Virus record (IMG/VR): IMGVR_UViG_2850126897_000005
Location: 1 to 64,000 of that record
Source: a virus
Lineage: Duplodnaviria; Caudoviricetes
Direction: 5' to 3' (one strand)
DNA length: 64,000 bases
Shown here in pieces: positions 2,726-35,137 of the stretch. The notes beneath the pieces are model-generated. The model did no database searches. It saw only the letters and a list, made by a program, of their open reading frames with translations, and had not been told where the DNA came from. Each line of letters begins with the position of its first letter. Within the stretch, counting starts at the first letter, position 1. The position numbers and the translations under genes are program-made.

Positions 2726-5104
2726 TTAGTATTTAATATGGTTAGCGATAGTCGTTAATTCAGTATTAGCTTGTCTTAATGAGTTATTGATAGCAGTACA
2801 TTGTTTTACTGGCAGCTCAAGTTCACTTTGGATCTTTTGCACTTCTACCAGCATTTCTTGCTGAATTTCTCCTATGATTTTATTTATCTCTTTTTCGATG
2901 GTTCCATTTGCATTACGTAAGATCTTATTAACTTCTTTTTTTTGTTGGGATTTTTTATAACCTGAGTCAAAAAATCCCCAAATAGATTTTGCTATACCAA
3001 CTAATGAACCAACTAGGGCGATAGCTCCTCCAACAAATGCTAGCGTCCATCCCACAGGATTTGTTGCCAAAAAAGCAATACCCAGAGCACCACCAACACC
3101 ACTAGCAATTAATCCACTTATTTGTAGTCCATTATCAACATTAATATTAAATTTAAAATTTTGTTGAAAATTAAGATTATTATTTTGTTTGATAACAATA
3201 TTCTTTAAATGTTGACTTGAACGGTCAATAATATTTCTAATTTTTTTACCAAAAATATTGGCTTCATTTTCAATGGCATGTTTAAGATCACTTTGTATAG
3301 TGATAGCTTTTTTTTCTAATATATTTTTTAGATCGCGTTTAAATTCATCATTGCTTATATCATTGTCAATTCTTTCGTAAATATGCGTTTGTACCTGATC
3401 GTGAAAATTACGGCAAATTTTACTCCCTATAGCATTTAATGTGCCGATAAATTCATCTAAAGCAGCATTAATTTTTGATTTTGCATTTGAAACTTCACTT
3501 TTTACATTTCTATTTAAATTAGAAAATTCAGTTTGCAATTTTTGTAATTCAGTTAAAGACTCTTTGAGTGTTTTATAAGCTTTATTTAAATTTGATTGCT
3601 TAATTTTATTTCTGTAATCGCCAATAATTGCAGTCTTTAAATGAGTGATAAAATCAGTCACACCACTTAATGATAAAATGGTTTTTGGGTCACCAAATTT
3701 GTCTAAAAACTTTTTTTGTTCTCTGGCTTCTTTGCTACCAGGTACGATACATTCTGTCAGTGCGAGATAAGCTGGGCGAGCACTTACAACTAAGCTTCCG
3801 TAGTATTGTTCTTGTAATTCTGATTTTAATTTTTCATTCATGGCCGCCAAACTGTTACGGTTATCTTCATTTAATAGTGGTGATGTGAGTTGACGCGGAC
3901 TGTTCGCAGGGTGGTTGTATATAGACCATACTTCACTTTGTGCGGCAAGATGTTTTTTAATTCTTTCCAGCGTTCCTTTTGTCGTTACATTTTCACCATC
4001 ACTCGTTTGTGGTGGGCGTGCTGTACGAGTAACATAAAATACAGCGTGGGCTTTGCGTACAGCCTCTTCAATTGGCGTACTTACAATCGTTTCATCACCT
4101 TCGATACCCGGAACATCAATTAAAGAAAATGCTTGTCCATCGACATTAAAGTCGAAAGAAGTATTATTACGAGTAAAATCAGAACGACCATCCCCAATAA
4201 TCTGCCCATCAGCAAAATCGGTTAATTTCTTAGCATCATTATCTAAACGGTTTTTTTCTCGCTCAGCTTGTTGTTGTTTTTGTTGTAGCTTTTGCTCCTT
4301 TTGACTTAATAGGGTGAGTTCTTGCTGTTTTTTCTCTTGTATTTGTTGCAGAGCCGCAGTTGCCTGTTGTTTTTCTTGTTGTTGGCATTGTAGGAGTTCT
4401 TGCTGCTCAATTTGTTGTTGTTTCTTCACTTGTGAACAGTGATCTTCAAGCTCAATAAGTTGTTTTTCTTCATGAGATTTGAAGAAGTAGGCTATTATTT
4501 TTTGTATCCAAGTTTGCTCTGCTTTTAGTTTTTCCAATAATTCACTTAAGTTAAAAATTTCAGACTCAATTTCGTTTATCGTATTGTTATGTCTTGTTGC
4601 CAATATTTTTGACTCTTGGATGTTTTTCTCTTTTGTTTGGCGAGTGGTTAACTCTGCTTGTATAATTGGCTCAGCATATTTTTTCGACAATTCGGTTATT
4701 TCTTGTTGTATTTCTTCAATCGCTTTCGTCATATCCATAATTATACGACAAACTTTATCAAATGCTTCTTGCGTTAATCCAAGCTGCTGTTGGATTTCTT
4801 TAAACTTTGACTGACTCTCTTTTTTAGTTTTTTCGCAGAGATATAAACGTAAAGCTTCAATTAAAGTTGATTTACCTGCATTGGTTTCACCATAAAAAGC
4901 AATAGTAAAACGATTCCATTCGCTATTTTCTTTTAATTTTTCTAGTTCTTCTTGAATATGGTTGTTGAGTAAACTTAAGTTGTCCATTGCATCAGAAATA
5001 TCTTCTGCTAATCGTTCATCAAGTTGTTCTTCTGTTAATTTTCCTGTAACCGTTTGTATTTGTTTCTGAATTTTCTCATATATTTCGTTAGATAGTTCGT
5101 ACAT
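2726..5104 (-). CDS. Dynamin-like GTPase, fused LeoB/LeoC-like (Eleos LeoBC-like)
   Basis: G1 YGETNAGKST, long Gln/Glu coiled-coil insert, G3 DVPG, Gly-rich membrane hairpin; likely start ATG 5104 (track gives 5158); 16 bp from leoA. Confidence 0.8.
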   Translation of the reverse strand: MYELSNEIYEKIQKQIQTVTGKLTEEQLDERLAEDISDAMDNLSLLNNHIQEELEKLKENSEWNRFTIAFYGETNAGKSTLIEALRLYLCEKTKKESQSKFKEIQQQLGLTQEAFDKVCRIIMDMTKAIEEIQQEITELSKKYAEPIIQAELTTRQTKEKNIQESKILATRHNNTINEIESEIFNLSELLEKLKAEQTWIQKIIAYFFKSHEEKQLIELEDHCSQVKKQQQIEQQELLQCQQQEKQQATAALQQIQEKKQQELTLLSQKEQKLQQKQQQAEREKNRLDNDAKKLTDFADGQIIGDGRSDFTRNNTSFDFNVDGQAFSLIDVPGIEGDETIVSTPIEEAVRKAHAVFYVTRTARPPQTSDGENVTTKGTLERIKKHLAAQSEVWSIYNHPANSPRQLTSPLLNEDNRNSLAAMNEKLKSELQEQYYGSLVVSARPAYLALTECIVPGSKEAREQKKFLDKFGDPKTILSLSGVTDFITHLKTAIIGDYRNKIKQSNLNKAYKTLKESLTELQKLQTEFSNLNRNVKSEVSNAKSKINAALDEFIGTLNAIGSKICRNFHDQVQTHIYERIDNDISNDEFKRDLKNILEKKAITIQSDLKHAIENEANIFGKKIRNIIDRSSQHLKNIVIKQNNNLNFQQNFKFNINVDNGLQISGLIASGVGGALGIAFLATNPVGWTLAFVGGAIALVGSLVGIAKSIWGFFDSGYKKSQQKKEVNKILRNANGTIEKEINKIIGEIQQEMLVEVQKIQSELELPVKQCTAINNSLRQANTELTTIANHIKY

Positions 5105-8237: not shown

Positions 8238-9419
8238 CTAGCTTAAAGATATTTGAGACATATTATTCACCGTCCCCCCATCATACTCCTTAAGATACCC
8301 TCCATAGTGCCTAAACAGCATCTCAGGCCCCTTATGCCCCATTTGTCCTGCTAGCCAAAATAGATTAGCGCCTTGGCTAATATGTCTCGTAGCAAAGGTA
8401 TGTCTCGTTTGGTAAGGATTGCGATATCTGATACCGGCTTTTTTCAATGTTGGTACCCATGCTTTCTTTCTGATTGCATCAGCTCCTGCCCAAGCCTTAT
8501 TTGTTTTCGGATCTTCAAAAATCACATCATCTTTCAGGAACGTGAATTGCTTCTGGTTATTTAGGGCGTTCAGGGCTTCACTATTCAACTCAACCTTTCT
8601 AGTACCAGCTTTAGTTTTGGTTTTCTTAATAACACCAACCACGCTGGCAGATTGCACGTGTGCAGTATTTTCTATGAAATCAATATCACTCCATCTTAAT
8701 GCACATAATTCAGAACTTCTTAACCCAGTATTAATGGCAAATTGAAATAGGGTTTTCCATTGTTCATATCTTGACGCAGCGAGTAGGGCAGAGACTTCTT
8801 TAGGTGACAACGGGTCGACTATATAACTGCTTTCATTATCACTATTATTTGATTGATACCTTGAAGCAGATACAAGGCTTACTGGGTTAATTGACACTAT
8901 CCCATCGGTAATGGCTTCATCCAGTGAGCTACGCAAAAACGAGAGCTGATTGCGGATGGTTTTTAATACTGTCGTTTGCTTTTGTATCCAGTTTTTTAGG
9001 ATTGCTGGTGTCAGTGATGAAACATGTAATTGGTGCAAATCAGACAGTGCACTTTTGCATTTTTTATAACCGCCAATCGTTGAGGGAGATAAATTTCGAG
9101 TTTCGCAAATAACTAAATACTCATCTAAATAATCAACCACTCTTTTCTCACGATTATTAACGCCAAAAAGCATTAATTTTTTAGAGTTAGGAAAATATTT
9201 AGCGTAATTAAAAGTGCCTTTTTCAATGTTATTTTGAATTTCAGCAAGTAACCTTTCAGCATATTTAATATTTTTATTATCGACGGTTAATCTAGAGAGA
9301 GGCTCTCTACAGAGCGCCCCTCTATAAGTAAACGTGATAACAATAGTTTGGCTGGTTTTGTTGTTACGAACCGTCACCCCTCTTGGTAGTGTGTAGCCTG
9401 TTTGTTTTTTCGCGCCCAC
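8238..9419 (-). CDS. int: Lambdoid tyrosine integrase with arm-binding domain
   Basis: TGLRSSEL, YQTRHTFAT, MGH and Y motifs. Confidence 0.93.
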   Translation of the reverse strand: MGAKKQTGYTLPRGVTVRNNKTSQTIVITFTYRGALCREPLSRLTVDNKNIKYAERLLAEIQNNIEKGTFNYAKYFPNSKKLMLFGVNNREKRVVDYLDEYLVICETRNLSPSTIGGYKKCKSALSDLHQLHVSSLTPAILKNWIQKQTTVLKTIRNQLSFLRSSLDEAITDGIVSINPVSLVSASRYQSNNSDNESSYIVDPLSPKEVSALLAASRYEQWKTLFQFAINTGLRSSELCALRWSDIDFIENTAHVQSASVVGVIKKTKTKAGTRKVELNSEALNALNNQKQFTFLKDDVIFEDPKTNKAWAGADAIRKKAWVPTLKKAGIRYRNPYQTRHTFATRHISQGANLFWLAGQMGHKGPEMLFRHYGGYLKEYDGGTVNNMSQISLS

Positions 9420-9583
9420 TTATTCACCTCAGCAATATCAATCCAACGTTCTTTTGAACCCTCAACTTTTAAAACATGTACACCGACTATCCAATATTGC
9501 CGTTGTATGCGCTTATTAATGGACTCTGGTGTTTCTCCGTACATATTGCAGTATGCGGAAATAGGCAAACATTCATATAACAT
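9374..9583 (-). CDS. xis: Excisionase
   Basis: Small wHTH-like ORF overlapping the int start; ATG at 9583. Confidence 0.7.
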   Translation of the reverse strand: MLYECLPISAYCNMYGETPESINKRIQRQYWIVGVHVLKVEGSKERWIDIAEVNKWARKNKQATHYQEG

Positions 9584-9656
9584 AATTTCCTCCCATATCC
9601 GCTTGCTTAATGTCGCGGAGAAATAAATCATAGCCTTCTGTGATATTTTGTCTCAT
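9573..9656 (-). CDS. 27-aa ORF overlapping xis start (not in track)
   Basis: GAGGCAAGACCAAG-ATG; MRQNITEGYDLFLRDIKQADMGGNYVI*. Confidence 0.45.
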   Translation of the reverse strand: MRQNITEGYDLFLRDIKQADMGGNYVI

Positions 9657-9834
9657 CTTGGTCTTGCCTCATCATTAATAAAATAAGTTGGTCAGCAATG
9701 TTGCAGGCATGCTTGATATCAGCTTTTGTACATGGTCTGTTTTTTACACTGGCAGCTAGCTTGCCTAACTTAATATCAAACTCAGTTAATAACTGTTCCT
9801 CGGGTGCCCAAGGGGTTAATTGTGGTTGTTTCAT
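9628..9834 (-). CDS. Phage hypothetical protein
   Basis: 68-aa ORF in leftward early operon. Confidence 0.55.
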   Translation of the reverse strand: MKQPQLTPWAPEEQLLTEFDIKLGKLAASVKNRPCTKADIKHACNIADQLILLMMRQDQDETKYHRRL

Positions 9835-9906
9835 GGTGGTTATCCATTGGTTTTGAATAAACCACCACAGTAAGAAAAAATGCAGAATAAAACTGATTAT
9901 GCTTAA

Positions 9907-10080
9907 TCAATTATTGGCCCGAATAATTGCTTCGATGGGATAGCATTCAGACAAAACACCTCGTTGAGTTAGGGCGTCTTTATCCATTAAACAATTCTGC
10001 TCATCGGGATAGGTATAGCCGTTAGATTTATATAAACAATCAGCACCACTGCAAATTAGCAGGAATAAACCATAAATCAT
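9907..10080 (-). CDS. DUF1482/YebW-like small protein (not in track)
   Basis: MIYGLFLLICSGADC...EQNCL...ECYPIE; ATGA overlap with upstream ORF. Confidence 0.6.
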   Translation of the reverse strand: MIYGLFLLICSGADCLYKSNGYTYPDEQNCLMDKDALTQRGVLSECYPIEAIIRANN

Positions 10081-10247
10081 TGTTTACTCCTTTGTAGTTC
10101 TGCCTGAGTAGGCTGTATTTCTATTCTAATATGTGCAGGAAAGTCATAAGAAACCTTGCAACGTCTATCTGTTGAAACAAACCCGTGCGAGCCATCGGGT
10201 AGGGTGATTTTGACTTCCTGGTCTTTTTGATGTTCGTGTCTTAGCAT
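10077..10247 (-). CDS. 56-aa phage protein (not in track)
   Basis: GAGGCAAGACCA-ATG; MLRHEHQKDQEVKITLPDGSHGFVSTDRRCKVSYDFPAHIRIE... Confidence 0.6.
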   Translation of the reverse strand: MLRHEHQKDQEVKITLPDGSHGFVSTDRRCKVSYDFPAHIRIEIQPTQAELQRSKQ

Positions 10248-10276
10248 TGGTCTTGCCTCGTTCGTGACATGTCACA

Positions 10277-10456
10277 TTAATGGATAACAGCCGGTGCCGT
10301 TGGGTAACCCAGTTGAAGTAACAACGCTTTTTTTACCAGTGATAGCGTTTGTTCTTCTTGGCGAGTGACTTGTTGAGTCGATGCTGTGGTCCACTCTACA
10401 CTGCATTTATTGTTAGCTTCATCGTGAGTGATGATGACTTCTAATTTCATGGCCAT
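10277..10456 (-). CDS. Phage hypothetical protein
   Basis: AGGAG RBS before ATG 10456. Confidence 0.55.
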   Translation of the reverse strand: MAMKLEVIITHDEANNKCSVEWTTASTQQVTRQEEQTLSLVKKALLLQLGYPTAPAVIH

Positions 10457-10501
10457 AAAAATATCTCCTGATAATGCGCCCATTGCAGGGCGCTATAGGT
10501 A

Positions 10502-11002
10502 TTAACGAACCTGTAGAGTACGTGCACCAGTTTCAAGGTGTGCACCATCTATAGTTTCACCTTTATCAATACGTTCTTTAATTGCTTTTTTATCGGGCGC
10601 AGTAATAGTTTGAACATCAACTAATTCGTCAGGAAGTAACGATTCATCATCAATGACAACGGATACAGTGCCTTTTCTTGCTGTAAAGGTATTTCTCAGT
10701 GTTTTTAAGCTATCTTTACCAGATGTTAATAAACACGTTAAGGCATACTGCTTTAAGTTTTTAATTTGATTATCAAATTGGTTTTTACGCTCAGCTAGGC
10801 GTTTAGATTCTTTACTTAGGGTTTCAGCTTGTCCTTCAATATTACGAACATGGACCATAATTGCGTCTAACTTGTCGCCTAATTCGCCCTCAAGACCCTC
10901 TAAGGTATCGGCAACATCCTCTGCTGTGAATTCACCTGTTTCGACGAGTTGTTGTAATTTGCTGTAGTCAGCAGCCATTGCAATAGCAGTTGTCTTGGTC
11001 AT
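10502..11002 (-). CDS. Siphovirus Gp157-family protein
   Basis: Coiled coil with DTLEGLEGE...K.D and C-terminal DKKAIKE...G.TIDGAHLE motif. Confidence 0.8.
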   Translation of the reverse strand: MTKTTAIAMAADYSKLQQLVETGEFTAEDVADTLEGLEGELGDKLDAIMVHVRNIEGQAETLSKESKRLAERKNQFDNQIKNLKQYALTCLLTSGKDSLKTLRNTFTARKGTVSVVIDDESLLPDELVDVQTITAPDKKAIKERIDKGETIDGAHLETGARTLQVR

Positions 11003-12966
11003 TAGATTGCCTCTTCTTTTTGTTTCAGTTGGTCTAAACACTCTTTTTCAATTTCATTTAGTCGGCGTAGACGGCCGTTTAAATATTTTTCATATTCACT
11101 GTCGCCACGTTGTTTGGCCAACTTGGCATGCGTTGATATTTCACGGGTGAGGGTGGATGTGATACCCCGTAATTCGTTTGGCGTCACTGCACTGCGCATC
11201 GTTTCAGTGTGTCGCGTGAACTTCTCATCTAACTCTTTGCGAATGCGGGTCGCATCTTCAGCGTTATCGCTGGCGGCTTTAATTTCATACTCGAGCTTAT
11301 TACTCGCCACATATTCAGGGTTATCATGCATTCCCATATAGACGTCAGAGCTAAAGCCAAGCATGGAAAGTGCTTTTTTGATGGAATCGGTGAGTGATTT
11401 TTTTATCACTTCACTGTCCGTTCTTATTCCTTGCTTGGTCTGATAGCGATAAGGTGTGGCACCGTAACTCTCAAACTCACCACGAGTTTCGCCTTCGATG
11501 ATGTACCAAAAGCGGATCTTGATTGAGTGATTTTGTTCAAAGAGTAATGTTCCATCCCCATCACGCAGGAACCTCATTGCGACTTGTTTATGGTGGGCAT
11601 CGAGTACGGGCTCGACAAGCGGCTTTCCATCAATCATTTTTTCTTCAATGATTTCATAACCCCAGCCTTCACCTATTGGGCCAAATATTTCAGTCGCACG
11701 CATAAACATATAGGTGCTGTTGATACTGGTACCAACAAAGCCCATACCATCAAGTGGTTTGGTAAAGCGTGAATCAGTACGTTGTACTTGCTTCCAAATA
11801 TTAAGGTGGTTTGTATTACCGCTATTAAGCACCTCATCAAGTACTGCTGCGCGTTGTTGAAAGTCATCTTGTTCAGTGGCAATTGGCGTAGGAACAACAG
11901 GTGTCTCAATCACAACTGGTTCTTTTTCTACTCTAGCCGGTGTGTCTTTTTTCTTGCTGGTGCGCTTTGGTTTCTCTGTTTTAGCCGGTTGCTCAGGTGT
12001 TTCATCATTAGCCGGCTTAGCATCTAAATTATCAACAGCGAAACGGCCACTACCGAGAGATGTTACTTTTGGGCTGTTGGCACTAAGTTTTGAATCGATA
12101 AACGCTTTACGGGCATTCGCATCATCAAATAGTTCGGGCTTTTCGCGTGCCTCAGCCACTAGTGCAAAGATGTTCTCGCGAGGGATATCTAGAACGCTAG
12201 GGAATGTGCGTAAATCCATTGATAAACGCTTCCATGCTTTATCTTCAGCGCTGATGAGTTCTTTTGCTTTGCGAATATCTGCACTTTTTGCATCGCTTGG
12301 TTTAACATCCATGAGAGCGAGGGCAATTTCGAGGTCAAGAGCGGCATAATCACGTTTAAGAACAGGCTCATCTTCAACGGGGGGTAGTTCAGGCTCCTCG
12401 GTTAACCAACTTTCACCAAGCGCCTTAGCTTCTTCGATAGTGACATTATCGTCAGCATACTCATAAACCGCCTGCGCGATTTCCATCGTGGCTTCAGCAT
12501 CCATTAATGAAACTTTGGTGATTTCAGCAAGGCCAGTGGCGATATGTCGAATCTTTGGCGCTTCTTTACTTTCATTGAGATATTTCAATGTTGAAGTGTA
12601 TTCATTATCAGTAATTTGAGTTTTACCAAACATCAGTAAAGCAGCTACGCGGGGTTTAGTTGCAAGCTTTTTAAATTCTTTATATTTAATGGGTTGCCAT
12701 TTTTCGCCGTCAAATTCATTTTCAACAGCAAATTTTTCATCGAACTGATCGAGCGCAGGGCGAGGGGAACCGACAGCATCCTCACAAATAATAGGCTCAT
12801 CGATATTAAAGTTATCCATAGAATCAGGGTAAGCTTCTGATAGCTTAATCATTGCTGTTGCTGCCGCAATTTTGGCATTCGCTGCATTGAAAGCGATGGT
12901 TAAAGGTATAGCGCCATTGGTTCGAGCCTCGGTCGTAGGCTCAAATACACAGATAAAAGTTGTCAT
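11002..12966 (-). CDS. RecE-N-like domain fused to Rad52/Sak-like single-strand annealing domain
   Basis: N-terminus resembles the exonuclease VIII N-region; C-terminal TSIN..Y...ATEIFGPIG.GWG and KK..TD.IKKALS.LGF..DVY motifs. Confidence 0.7.
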   Translation of the reverse strand: MTTFICVFEPTTEARTNGAIPLTIAFNAANAKIAAATAMIKLSEAYPDSMDNFNIDEPIICEDAVGSPRPALDQFDEKFAVENEFDGEKWQPIKYKEFKKLATKPRVAALLMFGKTQITDNEYTSTLKYLNESKEAPKIRHIATGLAEITKVSLMDAEATMEIAQAVYEYADDNVTIEEAKALGESWLTEEPELPPVEDEPVLKRDYAALDLEIALALMDVKPSDAKSADIRKAKELISAEDKAWKRLSMDLRTFPSVLDIPRENIFALVAEAREKPELFDDANARKAFIDSKLSANSPKVTSLGSGRFAVDNLDAKPANDETPEQPAKTEKPKRTSKKKDTPARVEKEPVVIETPVVPTPIATEQDDFQQRAAVLDEVLNSGNTNHLNIWKQVQRTDSRFTKPLDGMGFVGTSINSTYMFMRATEIFGPIGEGWGYEIIEEKMIDGKPLVEPVLDAHHKQVAMRFLRDGDGTLLFEQNHSIKIRFWYIIEGETRGEFESYGATPYRYQTKQGIRTDSEVIKKSLTDSIKKALSMLGFSSDVYMGMHDNPEYVASNKLEYEIKAASDNAEDATRIRKELDEKFTRHTETMRSAVTPNELRGITSTLTREISTHAKLAKQRGDSEYEKYLNGRLRRLNEIEKECLDQLKQKEEAI

Positions 12967-12978
12967 TGGTCTTGCCTC

Positions 12979-13311
12979 TTAATAAGGGATTTGTTCGTCA
13001 GTTTTAGAAATGGGTTTGCCTTCTAAACACAGCAGCATTTGGATCTGGTCTTCCAGTAAGCTTGATTTCACCTGCGCATCAGCAAGAATTTTGTTCTGCT
13101 CGGCTTTGAGTGCATTTATTTCTAACTGAACAAGTTCTGCATTGGTTGGTTCTGTAAAAGGAATTTCAGTAACGTGTTCAGCAATAACAAAGCCTAAACC
13201 TGATTTCACATCAGACTTAAATGCATAGGCGTTGAATTGATATGAACCATCAGGTTGCTTCTGTGCATGAATGTATAAGGTGACACTTAGGGTTTTAGGT
13301 TGTGCTTTCAT
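12979..13311 (-). CDS. Phage hypothetical protein
   Basis: AAGGAG RBS; 110 aa. Confidence 0.7.
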   Translation of the reverse strand: MKAQPKTLSVTLYIHAQKQPDGSYQFNAYAFKSDVKSGLGFVIAEHVTEIPFTEPTNAELVQLEINALKAEQNKILADAQVKSSLLEDQIQMLLCLEGKPISKTDEQIPY

Positions 13312-13334
13312 AGCAGCTCCTTTAAAATAACTGT

Positions 13335-13450
13335 GATCAGTGATTTATCATTGGTCTTGCCTCTTCTAGCGTTTGGTCGCGCTAGTAGAACTCTCGGTTA
13401 GCTTTGGTCGGCGACCCGAGGTAAAGGAACCCACTTCGGTGGGTTTTTTT
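13335..13450 (+). ncRNA. Candidate antisense small RNA
   Basis: Possible promoter TTGTGC(13300)-17 bp-TAAAAT(13323); anti-RBS segment; two hairpins with identical TTTGGTCG loops; cTTCGg terminator with T-run; 5' end inferred. Confidence 0.5.
13428..13450 (+). terminator. Intrinsic terminator, plus-strand oriented
   Basis: AACCCAC-TTCG-GTGGGTT followed by TTTTT. Confidence 0.8.
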
Positions 13451-13569
13451 ACGTCTATAATTTGTTGCCTGATTATTTAACCTCATCAGGCAGCTGAGGT
13501 TCTCGTGTACCCCTACAGCGAGAAATCGGCTAAAATATACTCTCCCCTACAGAATGAGAGTTTTTAGTT

Positions 13570-13788
13570 ATGAGTAATAACAGTATTCAACAGCAATTAG
13601 ATGCACAGCATATTTTAATAAAAGCGATTTTTAATGTGTTAACTTCCGAGCAAAAAGAAGAAGTTAAACATCAAATTGGGCATTTAAGTCAGGCTGCAAG
13701 ATATCCTCATATTTTGGAGTCGTTTAACTCAGAAAATGCGATAGAAGAAGCCCAGAATGCCGCATTGGATTTACTTCGTATTATATAA
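13570..13788 (+). CDS. Small cargo protein opposing the pL operon (sieB-like position)
   Basis: 72-aa ORF, opposite orientation, tail overlaps 13781-14095. Confidence 0.55.
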   Translation: MSNNSIQQQLDAQHILIKAIFNVLTSEQKEEVKHQIGHLSQAARYPHILESFNSENAIEEAQNAALDLLRII

Positions 13789-14095
13789 ATCCATCACCTA
13801 GCGACCAGTTATGCCTATTTTCTTTAATTATGGTCGCTATTTCTTCATCAATAATGGCTTGATGCTTGTTGATTTCCTCAATCAATTTACGTCCTTGGCC
13901 AATAACTTTGATTCTTGTGTAGAGAAACGCATCAGTCAGCAAATCGATCCTGTCTTTAATATCCTGAAGACTACTCCCTTCATTCGCCATTCTAGGTATC
14001 ATGCTTGTGGCAATAACATTAATGTCACTCAGCACAAACCCGACGTAGTTTTTTATTTTTGCTATTTCATCTTCGTTGTTAACTTTGTTGTCCAT
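13781..14095 (-). CDS. First ORF of leftward early operon, hypothetical
   Basis: AGGA RBS; 104 aa. Confidence 0.6.
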   Translation of the reverse strand: MDNKVNNEDEIAKIKNYVGFVLSDINVIATSMIPRMANEGSSLQDIKDRIDLLTDAFLYTRIKVIGQGRKLIEEINKHQAIIDEEIATIIKENRHNWSLGDGFI

Positions 14096-14227
14096 ATTTA
14101 TTTCCTATTTTGATTATATTGCCCGTCTTTCCGAACTGTCAGGTCTTGCCTCTGGCTTTGGTCTAAAAATCTTATCTGGTACTACTAAAAATTTGGTTTG
14201 AACACCTGACTAAACACTTGCTGTGTT

Positions 14228-14313
14228 TGTTTAAACAGTAAAACTTATTTAACTGAGATTAAGTTTAATTAATCAAACAGAAGAGTCAAGGAAAAAGTTC
14301 GTAAAATTAAACT
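14228..14313. promoter_or_regulatory. OL operators / pL region
   Basis: Three 18-bp sites of consensus WGTTY-N8-AAACW at 14228, 14262, 14296 (34-bp period); minus-strand TTGACT...TAAACT. Confidence 0.7.
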
Positions 14314-14329: not shown

Positions 14330-14358
14330 AAAAAAACCCACGCACGGTGGGCTTTTCT
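14330..14358. terminator. Bidirectional terminator downstream of cI
   Basis: A-run, CCCAC-GCACG-GTGGG, T-rich tail. Confidence 0.7.
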
Positions 14359-14370
14359 TTAATTGTTGGT

Positions 14371-15027
14371 CTATATCAAATCTTGTTCTATTCGAACACA
14401 CACACCTATAATTTCACAGGCATCATCAAAAGGGATCGGTTTATAATTAGGGTTGATTGGCATTAAATATTCATTGGGCCCATCAACAACATATTGTTTT
14501 ACCGTTGTTTCATTACTATCTTTTAATCGGGCAACGACAATCCGACCATTATAAATATCCTTTTCAGGGTCTACTATGACAATAGCCCCTTCTGGTATTG
14601 AGATGCGACTACGACCAGTTGTATCTACCATTGAATTCCCTACTACTCGCAAGGAAAATGAACTACCTGAAACTTTAGCGGTTGTTTCAATCCACTCGGT
14701 AAACTCGTCAAAACGCTGCTCAATCATGTCTTTCCATCGCCCTGCTTGTACATAGGAAACTAGTGGAACTCTCCTAGTTATATCAGGACCAAGAGTTACA
14801 TTCCCTTTAATTTCCTCAATCAACCCTCCATCTATTAGCCACTTCTCAGTGACTCCAAGTACAGTTGCTAATGATGATAAGAATTTTGCAGACGGCTCGG
14901 TACCACCGTTAACCCACTGGCTGACGGTTCCTTTTGATGCGCCTGTCGCATCCATGATGTGCTTACTTTTTAATTTTAACTCCCGCATCCTCAGGTTAAT
15001 GCGGTCGCTCATTGTTTGTATTGTCAT
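14371..15027 (-). CDS. cI: CI-like repressor with S24 autopeptidase domain
   Basis: HTH (GASKGTVSQW), VQAG cleavage site, GNSM Ser and TVK Lys catalytic residues. Confidence 0.92.
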   Translation of the reverse strand: MTIQTMSDRINLRMRELKLKSKHIMDATGASKGTVSQWVNGGTEPSAKFLSSLATVLGVTEKWLIDGGLIEEIKGNVTLGPDITRRVPLVSYVQAGRWKDMIEQRFDEFTEWIETTAKVSGSSFSLRVVGNSMVDTTGRSRISIPEGAIVIVDPEKDIYNGRIVVARLKDSNETTVKQYVVDGPNEYLMPINPNYKPIPFDDACEIIGVCVRIEQDLI

Positions 15028-15090
15028 GTTTATATAATTAAACAAATTAAGTTTAATTTCTTGACTTTCTATAGTTTATTTATTTAAACT
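15027..15090. promoter_or_regulatory. OR operators / pR region
   Basis: Three related 18-bp sites at 15027, 15050 (degenerate) and 15073 (23-bp period); TTGACT at 15061 and TAAACT at 15085. Confidence 0.7.
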
Positions 15091-15799: not shown

Positions 15800-15816
15800 T
15801 TCAAGAGGCAAGACCA

Positions 15817-16041
15817 ATGCTAAGAACGACTGAATTGATTACCTATTGCAATGGTTTTTTATTGAATGGAAAGCCAGCAGACAGAAAACAAATCGAAGAT
15901 ATTTTCGAGGGAAGAAGGGCGATAGCGCTCAATATTGGGGAGCAATACGAACAACAAAAACAAAAGCTACTTTTAAAGAAATTGTCGCCTGAGCAGTACC
16001 AGAACGCTTGTCGCGATATCGCTAAAGCGCTGGGGGTGTGA
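15817..16041 (+). CDS. Phage hypothetical protein abutting replication gene
   Basis: GAGGCAAGACCA-ATG; stop is 1 nt before the O start. Confidence 0.7.
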   Translation: MLRTTELITYCNGFLLNGKPADRKQIEDIFEGRRAIALNIGEQYEQQKQKLLLKKLSPEQYQNACRDIAKALGV

Positions 16042-20701: not shown

Positions 20702-21295
20702 ATGGCACAGCATAGCTTTATCAAAATGTCTAACGACACTCTTGTACCGGCTAATCCAGCGGCAAGGGATTTTTTGCATTCCAAAATCAAGTGTGGTGAT
20801 GTGCTTTCGGCTGATTTCAAGAAAGCTCGTAACCCTCGTTTTCACCGTAAATACTTCGCTTTACTCAATCTAGGGTATGAATACTGGGAACCAACCGGCG
20901 GTACCATTTCGCCTGAAGAAAAAGAATTGGTTCGTGGTTACGTTAAATTCCTTGCTTACTACACAGATAACGACGATGCCCTCCAATCCGCTGCAGATGT
21001 TTACTTAGACGATGTAGCACAGAAACGCGCTCACAATATTTCAGCGACCAAATCCTTTGATGCTTTCCGCTATTGGGTAGTAGAGCAATCAGGCCATTAT
21101 GAAACTTTTGAAATGCCAGACGGTAGCCTACGCCGCGTGGCTAAATCAATCAGCTTTGCCAAAATGGATGACCTAGCCTTTGGCGAACTCTACAAATCCA
21201 CACTTGATGTGCTCTGGAACTTCATTTTATTCCGCAAATTCCCCACTCAAGAAGCTGCTGAAAATGCGGCGGCTCAGTTATTAGATTTTACCTAG
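20702..21295 (+). CDS. DUF1367-family phage protein
   Basis: KARNPRFHRKYFALLNLGYEYWEP...SISFAKMD. Confidence 0.8.
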   Translation: MAQHSFIKMSNDTLVPANPAARDFLHSKIKCGDVLSADFKKARNPRFHRKYFALLNLGYEYWEPTGGTISPEEKELVRGYVKFLAYYTDNDDALQSAADVYLDDVAQKRAHNISATKSFDAFRYWVVEQSGHYETFEMPDGSLRRVAKSISFAKMDDLAFGELYKSTLDVLWNFILFRKFPTQEAAENAAAQLLDFT

Positions 21296-21306
21296 AGGCA
21301 AGACCA

Positions 21307-21621
21307 ATGACCAAGAAATCAAAGACCAAAGAAGATAAACAGTGGCTATCAGATGTGGCCGCACTTGGCTGTATCTGCTGCCGCAATATGGGATATGGCG
21401 CAACCCTCGCGGAAATCCATCATGTAAGAACAGGGCAGGGAATGGCGCAGCGAGCTAGCCATAAAGACGTTTTACCGTTATGCCCACATCATCACAGGCC
21501 TAGTTATGACACTGGTTTTCATGCAGCGCCTAAAACATGGCAGGAAATTCACGGTACCGAAATCGAGTTACTGGAACAAACGAAAAGAGAAGTCATGGAG
21601 CTGCGCGCATGTCGAGTATAA
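21307..21621 (+). CDS. Ref-like HNH nuclease
   Basis: CICC...EIHH...LPLCPHHH. Confidence 0.7.
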   Translation: MTKKSKTKEDKQWLSDVAALGCICCRNMGYGATLAEIHHVRTGQGMAQRASHKDVLPLCPHHHRPSYDTGFHAAPKTWQEIHGTEIELLEQTKREVMELRACRV

Positions 21622-22142
21622 AAAGTATTTCTGATGGACTCGTACTCGGTGCAGAGCAAGAAGCTTGGTTGCAAGGTTGGCTATCCAAATTCGGTGCTTG
21701 GGTTTACAGTGGTAGATTAGAAAAACGCCAAAGCAGTATCATTGCTGAATTTATGGCAACGGTAGAAAAACGTGATTATCCAGAAAGGGAAATGTGTAAC
21801 GATGACGACGGAATGTTAATCACCAAGGTGGTTGATAAAATTTATCATATAGACCGAATTGCATTCACGTTATTGTTATTACGTTATGCCTTTGTGAGCT
21901 CTGACCGTGCCATTGCTCGTTATTATTATGGTATTGCACAGCCACGCCAGATGGTTCGTAGGAATCGTACGCTTGAATATCGAAAACCCTCGATGGCCAC
22001 ATGCCGCCGTGAGGTAAAAGAAATCATCCGTTCTGCAGAGTATTTAATTTACCCACATCTCTATAATGCATTTAAAATACGCGATAATGAGTGGAAAAAG
22101 AAAAATAATAGTAAGAACGTGTTGACTTCCTTGATCCAATGA
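21609..22142 (+). CDS. Q: Late antiterminator Q
   Basis: W..GWLSKFGAWVYSG and CNDDDG.LI motifs; position before the late promoter region. Confidence 0.8.
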   Translation: MSSIKSISDGLVLGAEQEAWLQGWLSKFGAWVYSGRLEKRQSSIIAEFMATVEKRDYPEREMCNDDDGMLITKVVDKIYHIDRIAFTLLLLRYAFVSSDRAIARYYYGIAQPRQMVRRNRTLEYRKPSMATCRREVKEIIRSAEYLIYPHLYNAFKIRDNEWKKKNNSKNVLTSLIQ

Positions 22143-34070: not shown

Positions 34071-35137
34071 TGCCAGTTAGCAAGCAAAAGTTTTATATGT
34101 CTGGCCGCGATATTCGCAAGCATGGTCAACTTAATATCCAACCTAACCAACAGTGGACGTATCGCGAACTTGAGCAAATTGGTTTTGGTGGCTTGGCGTC
34201 GATGGACTCCGCGATTAGCGGTGCGGCAATGCAAGGGGGGTTAATTCAGCGTGAAATGTTGCAACATGTTCTCCCTGGTCTGATTCGTACTGCAACCCGT
34301 GTTCGTGTGTTGGATGAAATCACCGGTGTATTGAATGCGGGTGAATGGCACGATGAGGAAATCATTCTGAACGTGGCAACACCAACCGGTAAAGCCGAGC
34401 TCTACGGCGACCATACCAACGTGCCGTTAGCATCATACATTCAAGACCAAGAACGCCGCGGTATCGTGCGTTTTGAACAAGGTTTTCAAGTCGGTAAGTT
34501 AGAGGAAGCGCGCCAGTCTGCAGCTGGGTTTGAAGCCGCCGCAGAAAAGCGTAACTCAGCGACAGAATCCTTAGAACAAGGGCGTGAGCGGATTGGTTAC
34601 TATGGGTTTAATAGCCCTGAAACCCGTGTATTTGGCTTGATGAATGAACCGAATCTACCCGCTTATGAAACCGCATCGAAAAAATGGAAGGGCGGCACGT
34701 TTGCCGATATCACCCAAGATATTACCGATATGTTCTCGCGCATTGAAATGAGTTCAGGCGGGATTATCAAAGACGATATCGCGATCACGTTGACGTTACC
34801 GCTGGGCTATCGTTCAACGCTCAATGTCGCTAACCCTGTGGCGCGTGGTGAAACGGTGTATCAATGGGTGAAAGAAAACTATCCAAACCTGCGCTTTGTG
34901 TTCTCACCTGAATTTGTCGGGGCGAATGGTGGTGCGGATGTGGCGTATATGTTCGCAGATACCATCGATGATGGCTCAACTGCAACCAGCGCGACTATCT
35001 TACAAGTGGTACCCGTTAAGTACCAATTATTGGGTTCACAAGCACAAATCAAAGGGTATTTAGAGGATGCGACCAACGCGACAGCGGGTGTCTTTGTCAC
35101 GCGCCCTTGGGCTATCACCCGCCTAACTGGCATTTAA
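34070..35137 (+). CDS. Major capsid protein (DUF2184-like)
   Basis: Size, position, G.YG..S...FGL.N.PNL motif; terminator at ~35158-35180. Confidence 0.8.
   Translation: MPVSKQKFYMSGRDIRKHGQLNIQPNQQWTYRELEQIGFGGLASMDSAISGAAMQGGLIQREMLQHVLPGLIRTATRVRVLDEITGVLNAGEWHDEEIILNVATPTGKAELYGDHTNVPLASYIQDQERRGIVRFEQGFQVGKLEEARQSAAGFEAAAEKRNSATESLEQGRERIGYYGFNSPETRVFGLMNEPNLPAYETASKKWKGGTFADITQDITDMFSRIEMSSGGIIKDDIAITLTLPLGYRSTLNVANPVARGETVYQWVKENYPNLRFVFSPEFVGANGGADVAYMFADTIDDGSTATSATILQVVPVKYQLLGSQAQIKGYLEDATNATAGVFVTRPWAITRLTGI

Follow-up and report, generated by a model that had tools for sequence, protein, structure and literature searches.

A predicted small RNA related to Salmonella IsrB is complementary to a tag at several early-gene start sites of a lambda-like provirus

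In the immI region of phages P1 and P7, the C4 RNA pairs through exposed sequences with a ribosome-binding region, and icd is coupled to ant, so that polarity spreads the repression. This RNA is excised from the transcript of its own target and acts on essentially one target operon, and P1 and P7 differ in the matched RNA and target sequences. Sar of P22 and OOP of lambda are short cis-encoded antisense RNAs of the early or immunity region, with their own promoter and terminator; both act solely on the transcript that they overlap, Sar covering the ribosome-binding site of ant, and to our knowledge no dispersed tag regulon has been described for either. In phage T4, it is a protein, RegA, that represses many early genes at their start sites, with loose sequence specificity.

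The closest described relative of the RNA reported here is IsrB of the Salmonella prophages Gifsy-1 and Gifsy-2. It was detected as 88- and 94-nt species by Northern blot and primer extension, and found to be induced by starvation (PMC2330248); its expression in lysogens has been reported (PMC7067206), and it is among the ProQ-associated sRNAs listed in another study (PMC5391140). In Table 1 of Padalon-Brauch et al. 2008 (PMC2330248) it is placed between sbcA and STM1010 in the orientation <- -> <-, and Gifsy-2 IsrB indeed sits between the exodeoxyribonuclease VIII gene and STM1010, antisense to both. No assigned function or target was found in the literature that we searched on IsrB. The E. 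coli "IsrB" (IS092/AzuCR) has the same name and is a different RNA.

The window analysed here is a stretch of 64,000 nucleotides (positions 1 to 64,000 of the IMG/VR virus record IMGVR_UViG_2850126897_000005), part of an 83 kb provirus with a lambda-like early region at its left end. All the genes from 8238 to 13311 are on the minus strand, and the predicted sRNA cassette is on the plus strand. The landmarks of the region are the following:

8238-9419, minus strand: integrase gene
9374-9631, minus strand: excisionase gene
10502-10999, minus strand: Gp157-family gene
11002-12966, minus strand: RecE-like exonuclease gene (phrog_2489)
12979-13311, minus strand: gene for a 110-aa protein (phrog_2479), between the sRNA and the exonuclease gene
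14262-14289, minus strand: candidate PL promoter (TTGACT, 16-bp spacer, TAAACT)
14371-15045, minus strand: CI-like repressor gene
15061-15090, plus strand: candidate PR promoter, mirror image of the PL candidate
to the right of the repressor gene, plus strand: cro, CII-like, O-like, helicase, NinB and Q-like genes

The gene that starts at 12966 had been called a recombinase in the original prediction and is here assigned to the RecE-like exonucleases. Transcripts from the candidate PL promoter would cross the sRNA gene in antisense, and the orientation of this gene and its two neighbours, <- -> <- in a lambdoid prophage, is that found in Gifsy-2.

Several other features of this region were recorded. 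The ORFs 13781-14095 (minus strand) and 13570-13788 (plus strand), between the PL leader and the cassette, gave no PHROG or Pfam match, and they look like an accessory insertion because the leader adjoins the cassette directly in most relatives. No N-like gene was found, the ORF at 13781-14095 being without a family hit and not arginine-rich. About 100 bp located just past the sRNA terminator (13466-13560) show 80-85% identity to lambda 34393-34490, upstream of sieB, and to the corresponding place in some 120 phages of Salmonella and E. coli, with no other match to those phages within 7 kb; in the blastn comparison of the window region with deposited phages, this flanking 100 bp alone matched lambda. 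The segment precedes the unrelated 72-aa ORF 13570-13788 here and different small ORFs in relatives, and has the look of a portable promoter-leader unit that serves accessory genes expressed in the lysogen. A hairpin at 14330-14355 (CCCAC-GCACG-GTGGG, bordered by A7 and, at its opposite end, by a T-rich run), located between the repressor gene's end and PL, probably terminates transcription in both directions; its stem is similar to the one in the sRNA terminator.

A plus-strand sRNA gene at about 13335-13450 is, in our assessment, very probably real. The positions originally given for its promoter, seed, hairpins and terminator were all right on recheck, and the gene is made up of the following parts:

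13300-13328, plus strand: sRNA promoter read from the sequence, with -35 TTGTGC (13300-13305), 17-bp spacer and -10 TAAAAT (13323-13328)
13335-13450, plus strand: predicted sRNA of about 115 nt, with an estimated 5' end and a 3' end at the T-run
13335-13356, plus strand: predicted 5' hairpin H0, GAUCAGUGA (13335-13343) paired with UCAUUGGUC (13348-13356)
13348-13365, plus strand: seed UCAUUGGUCUUGCCUCUU (DNA TCATTGGTCTTGCCTCTT), antisense of a Shine-Dalgarno, spacer and AUG
13366-13385, plus strand: hairpin H1, hexaloop UUGGUC at 13373-13378, closed by U-G
13393-13420, plus strand: hairpin H2, hexaloop UUGGUC at 13404-13409, common to Salmonella IsrB
13423-13450, plus strand: Rho-independent terminator, CCCAC/GUGGG at 13430-13443 with loop UUCG, U7 at 13444-13450, and an extension of A/U pairs

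Folded on the plus strand, the cassette forms four hairpins (z = -5.5). Its promoter overlaps the start codon and ribosome-binding site of the minus-strand gene 12979-13311, and the conservation of the -35 element, which is weak (3/6), is confounded by coding constraint because of this overlap. A -10-like hexamer (TAAAAT, TATATT, TATAAT or TATACT, some with a TG extension) was found in every lineage shortly 5' of the conserved GAUC of the RNA, and in the relative L118 a 25-nt insertion carries its own TATAAT, which travels with the RNA and not with the start of the neighbouring coding sequence. The terminator of phage BUCT708 is unrelated in sequence to that of the window and likewise works on the plus strand only. 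Both promoter and terminator are maintained in all the lineages even where their sequence differs, which agrees with the claim that the RNA has its own. In the deposited record of BUCT708 (L155, OM816834.1), a 114-nt hypothetical CDS (4096-4209) is annotated on the wrong strand across the sRNA gene.

An alignment of 51 distinct homologues was assembled from viral contigs and genomes, some of them adjoining phrog_2479 genes only 40-44% identical to that of the window. Over these homologues, the four hairpins were paired in 99.3% of the cells on the plus strand versus 80.6% on the minus strand: the 1616 pair cells comprise 1300 Watson-Crick pairs, 304 G-U pairs and 12 mismatches in the former, and 1300, 2 and 314, respectively, when the identical helices are read on the latter. 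Shuffled controls gave 92.6% paired cells, with 0 of 500 attaining the observed value, and slid controls reached 56% at most. RNAalifold returned the four helices, with compensatory changes in 13 of 32 pairs. Such changes affect all six pairs of H1, in which at least six different stems carry an invariant UUGGUC loop, and H2 presents the variants CUCGG/CCGAG, CCCGA/UCGGG and CCAGA/UCUGG. The stems drift, and within the RNA conservation is highest in the seed, with UUGGUCUU(G/U)CCUC invariant across the 51 homologues. The pair counts, the persistence of the -10 element and the plus-only terminators thus place the sRNA gene on the plus strand, convergent with PL, and the structured plus-strand RNA that had been proposed is borne out by the G-U counts and the compensatory pairs.

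The seed was originally described as unpaired over the whole of 13348-13365. This holds for UUGCC at 13357-13361, a free toehold with an unpaired probability of about 0.95; since 13348-13356 is predicted to pair with 13335-13343 in the 5' hairpin, only UUGCC and the two UUGGUC loops are clearly free. H0 would thus mask the AUUGGUC half of the seed, and the predicted cost of opening all 18 nt is about 12.9 kcal/mol, against about 3.3 kcal/mol for the 3' half. The 5' arm of H0 varies (CAGUGA, CGAUGA, CAAUGA), with pairing kept through G-U on the plus strand only, and in all lineages this arm (GAUCAGU, GAUCGAU and similar) pairs AUUGGUC with two G-U pairs, so that it would amount to the target GACCAAU in weakened form. 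H1 and H2 both show TTTGGTCG, and UUGGUC can itself pair with GACCAA in the tag described below, as had been noted for both loops.

The RNA was not recognised in the original prediction. Its best Rfam match is isrB (RF01386), which aligns over model positions 1-87 with an insertion of 46 nt and scores 30.3 bits (E 5e-4 on 201 nt), below the gathering cut-off of 35 bits; two relatives with the same seed as the window, L117 and L118, pass this cut-off with 38.4 bits. Positions 13393-13450, that is, the hairpin with the CUUUGGUCGG loop followed by the terminator, align column by column to the RF01386 consensus, H2 falling on its hairpin GCUUUGGUCGG. In the reciprocal direction, a model built from the 51 homologues (R1) scored 153 bits on the window, 56 bits on BUCT708, 38.6 bits on phage HK225 and 33.1 bits (E 3e-7) on Gifsy-2 IsrB. 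Like IsrB-1 and IsrB-2 (Gifsy-2 and Gifsy-1, respectively), the window RNA would be a prophage sRNA located before a recE/sbcA-type exonuclease gene and antisense to both neighbours; in both cases the promoter overlaps the start of the downstream gene, and the CUUUGGUCGG-loop hairpin is followed by a terminator of the CCCAC-UUCG-GUGGG type. Salmonella IsrB differs in its length of 88 or 94 nt, its single UUGGUC hairpin, its unrelated 5' part and the absence of an anti-start-site seed. Since the 3' part is shared but the Salmonella and HK225 RNAs are without seed, H0 and H1, we regard the window RNA as an enlarged IsrB variant and not as a plain member of the family. By sequence comparison, it is a divergent, enlarged relative of IsrB, in which the 3' half is shared and a 5' half, consisting of the masking hairpin, the seed and a second UUGGUC hairpin, is added. 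In the Gifsy-2 and HK225 loci, no repeated complement of their own IsrB of at least 11 nt was found; as these RNAs have neither the seed nor a repeated tag, the conserved UUGGUC loops must have another function.

Prophages of Providencia, Proteus and Morganella carry the system, as do a few E. coli genomes and at least one deposited phage. A scan with exact patterns detected the cassette in six species genomes of Providencia, four of Proteus and one of Morganella, as well as in 68 viral contigs, and blastn with the window cassette matched neither the 5426 E. coli genomes searched nor deposited phages.

The complement of the seed, which we refer to as the tag, is repeated along both early operons of the window, where the following sites were identified:

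12963-12980, minus strand: start of the exonuclease gene (11002-12966), 18 nt complementary to the seed
15803-15819, plus strand: start of the 74-aa ORF 15817-16041 (phrog_2465), 17 nt complementary
21294-21310, plus strand: start of the RecA-dependent-nuclease-like ORF 21307-21621, 17 nt complementary
10245-10259, minus strand: start of the 56-aa ORF 10077-10247 (phrog_2482), 15 nt complementary
9658-9670, minus strand: tag before the 27-codon ORF 9573-9656, 13 nt complementary
14142-14153, minus strand: PL-leader copy AGAGGCAAGACC, 12 nt complementary, with no start codon
14155-14163, minus strand: GACCAAAGC, beside the PL-leader copy and complementary to the H2 loop
11007-11017, minus strand: incomplete tag AGAAGAGGCAA at the Gp157-family start site (ATG 10999), complementary over 11 nt to the seed portion left free

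The first five sites had been predicted, and their complementarity of 18, 17, 17, 15 and 13 nt was reproduced exactly; that list was incomplete, and with the PL-leader copy added, exact complementarity of 12-18 nt to the seed occurs at six sites of the window. Allowing up to three mismatches, the 17-mer AAGAGGCAAGACCAATG occurs 6 times in the window versus 0.22 expected, and the 9-mer GGCAAGACC 7 times versus 0.30 expected. All the tag copies of the window are in the sense of early transcription, and the copy within the cassette itself precedes a mini-ORF located ahead of phrog_2479. This 4-codon ORF is not conserved, and its role as a leader peptide was discarded. The short ORFs that follow several tags are closely joined to larger genes: the 27-codon ORF overlaps the start of the excisionase gene (9374-9631), the 74-aa ORF ends 2 nt before the O-like replication gene (16043), and the ORF 21307-21621 overlaps the start of the Q-like antiterminator ORF 21537-22142, which suggests that translational coupling is a general design here. 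In the PL leader, the order of AGAGGCAAGACC and GACCAAAGC would permit a two-site antiparallel pairing with the seed and the H2 loop.

The PL leader also contains a hairpin (GUUCG-GAAAGA-CGGGC, 14120-14135) whose pairing through U-G is restricted to the minus strand. In the E. coli and BUCT708 relatives, the leader is free of ORFs, is 0.6-0.9 kb long and has four or five such hairpins with a GAAAGA loop (L220, 6170-6790; L155, 4160-4745). This loop does not switch with the class of the seed, and no hairpin matching it was found downstream of PR.

The relationship between seed and tags was followed across genomes. In a 4.1-Mb Providencia genome, the core tag GAGGCAAGACC is present in eight copies, all of them within 12.4 kb of the prophage early region, four per strand and diverging. 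A set of 117 non-redundant cassette-bearing loci was divided into 98 of type C and 19 of type A according to the seed. The tag copies to the left of the cassette (191) and those of the leader (33, detected by the exact core in 33 of the 117 loci) are all on the minus strand, and the 148 copies located more than 1 kb to its right are all on the plus strand. None of these 372 non-cassette copies is of the wrong type, and no mixed genome was found among the 117 loci. The type-A lineage, made up of 19 loci, 10 of 5426 E. coli genomes and phage BUCT708, has the seed GGUCUUUCC / GGUCUUUCCUC and the tag GAGGAAAGACC in every case, so that the C-to-A change affects seed and targets together, the co-variation that the original prediction had proposed to look for. 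Next to the core, the base immediately preceding GAGG also changes with the RNA: for RNAs with U it is A in 78 of 110 distinct targets, and for those with G it is C in 13 of 26 type-A targets and in 4 of 7 targets of L186. The early-region layout of 'Stenotrophomonas phage vB_SmeS_BUCT708' is that of the E. coli prophages with the type-A system.

The tag was not found to persist without the RNA, a situation that had been put forward as a refutation: among the matches listed, every contig with at least two tags has the cassette wherever the region is present, L178 being a 5.4-kb fragment that ends before the cassette position. Two sequences (G003 and G004) with a single exact 17-mer and no cassette were judged to be chance occurrences in unrelated phages, and a scan for seeds of a third class, with A or C in the variable place, gave 14 stretches that were all unrelated chance matches.

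As the 5' end of the RNA mirrors the tag at the ribosome-landing sites of several early genes, one RNA probably holds them down, and we consider it reasonably probable that it represses the tagged genes in trans, a reading well supported by comparison. The RNA has what is found in trans-acting sRNAs of the anti-Shine-Dalgarno type: a conserved, partly exposed seed against several start sites, with seed and targets changing together. We infer that the sRNA is transcribed from its own sigma-70 promoter towards PL, antisense to the leftward early operon. Its free UUGCC(UCUU) would then land on AAGAGGCAA, the Shine-Dalgarno portion of tagged start sites, and the duplex would extend over GACCAAUG, displacing the weaker, G-U-containing 5' arm, as the pairing with the target is all Watson-Crick. 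With Shine-Dalgarno and AUG covered, the ribosome would be excluded and initiation blocked. Because the short tagged ORFs overlap or abut xis, O and Q, blocking them should also lower these genes, whose expression would be reduced through lost translational coupling and Rho polarity. In cis, the sRNA is fully complementary to the PL transcript before the first leftward genes, in addition to its two-site pairing with the PL leader. In the lysogen, the likely role of the RNA is to restrain lytic expression that is leaky or early. Duplex energies of the whole sRNA were also computed against all start regions, with scores that are inflated by long discontinuous duplexes.

Compared with the systems described above, the predicted RNA resembles C4 in its start-site pairing and in the logic of coupled ORFs, and the P1/P7 pair resembles the C and A classes; unlike C4, it has its own convergent promoter and at least six dispersed predicted targets in both early operons. 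An RNA of the P1/P7 C4 type was in fact discarded, given the presence of its own -10 element, a strand opposite to that of the left-operon targets, and an origin other than excision from the target transcript. Sar and OOP share with it the possession of their own promoter and terminator and differ in their action on a single transcript. In RegA, one factor likewise acts on many start sites, whereas an RNA would play this part here, with a tag that is an exact 11-17-mer.

The most serious alternative, which we hold to be rather unlikely, is that the sRNA acts in cis only on the PL transcript, for example through RNase III processing or transcriptional interference, and that the tag is a standard start site spreading with gene modules by recombination at short conserved junctions, so that the remaining complementarity is a by-product. 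As the RNA gene overlaps one copy of the tag, its match to the other copies comes free; yet the seed is the part of the RNA that stays constant while the stems drift, and in all lineages the 5' arm has the form of a G-U-weakened copy of the target. The tag stands upstream of 110 distinct gene contexts, and in L140 an inserted gene is bordered by two copies of it, as expected of module junctions, but the cassette and leader copies keep the core even in several lineages where no start codon is found at a usable distance. The switch between C and A probably represents a single evolutionary event, which any force keeping the tag copies alike could yield, and the RNA of type-A phages does not match the conserved AAC that flanks their targets, both of which count against action in trans; a ribosome, however, would need neither C nor A at the switched position, and all four to eight copies per genome agree with the RNA. 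Salmonella IsrB, for its part, has been described as cis-antisense to its flanking genes (PMC2330248), with no repeated tag there. The weight of the co-variation between seed and tags is therefore limited, since it probably reflects one event and the seed overlaps a tag copy, and for these same reasons, automatic complementarity and a possibly single C/A change, action restricted to the PL transcript stays a serious rival to repression in trans.

It appears improbable that the main function resides in the two UUGGUC loops, as sites for proteins of the ProQ/Hfq type or for contacts with host RNAs, the 5' seed being a secondary addition. The CUUUGGUCGG loop is kept from phages of Morganellaceae to the seedless Gifsy-2 and HK225, and IsrB is associated with ProQ (PMC5391140), but the invariant seed, the tags and their co-variation would be left unexplained, and UUGGUC is complementary to GACCAA of the tag. 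A main function in the loops and repression in trans could hold together. Finally, that there is no sRNA, and that hairpins and tag are sense-strand signals of the PL transcript (nut-, put- or boxB-like, or sites for a phage RNA-binding protein), is hardly credible, because, although all the tags including the cassette copy are in the sense of early transcription and the hairpin of the nearby leader (14120-14135) forms on the minus strand, the mismatches among the 1616 pair cells rise from 12 on the plus strand to 314 on the minus strand, the T7 run and the unrelated terminator of BUCT708 work on the plus strand only, and the locus is homologous to the experimentally mapped IsrB, antisense to its neighbours. 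As nut/boxB or put sites, H0, H1, H2 and the terminator were ruled out by this strand test. A sponge for the protein CsrA of the CsrB/RsmX type was also rejected, as the UUGGUC loops are without GGA and the rsmX model, whose cut-off is 56 bits, gave 21.7 bits.

The expression of IsrB from prophages has been on record since 2008, and the enlarged form of this sRNA supplies a concrete set of candidate targets, with exact tags of 11-18 nt at the start sites leading to xis, the exonuclease gene, O and Q, and with C and A classes that constitute a natural compensatory-mutation experiment. Taking repression in trans one step further, we put forward, tentatively and as a possibility with the odds against it, that the RNA and its tags form a second, RNA-based layer of immunity with exchangeable specificity, gating excision, recombination, replication and late transcription through the blocked leader ORFs, polarity on xis, O and Q and two-site pairing with the PL leader, in which the two mutually non-matching seed/tag classes (G-C and U-A) would behave as heteroimmune groups. 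If so, the RNA of a resident prophage would also silence incoming phages of its own class, and a first function would be available for the orphan IsrB family. If repression in trans is confirmed, one RNA and a common tag would control both early operons post-transcriptionally, alongside CI/Cro, and phage gene modules would enter the regulon merely by carrying the tag.
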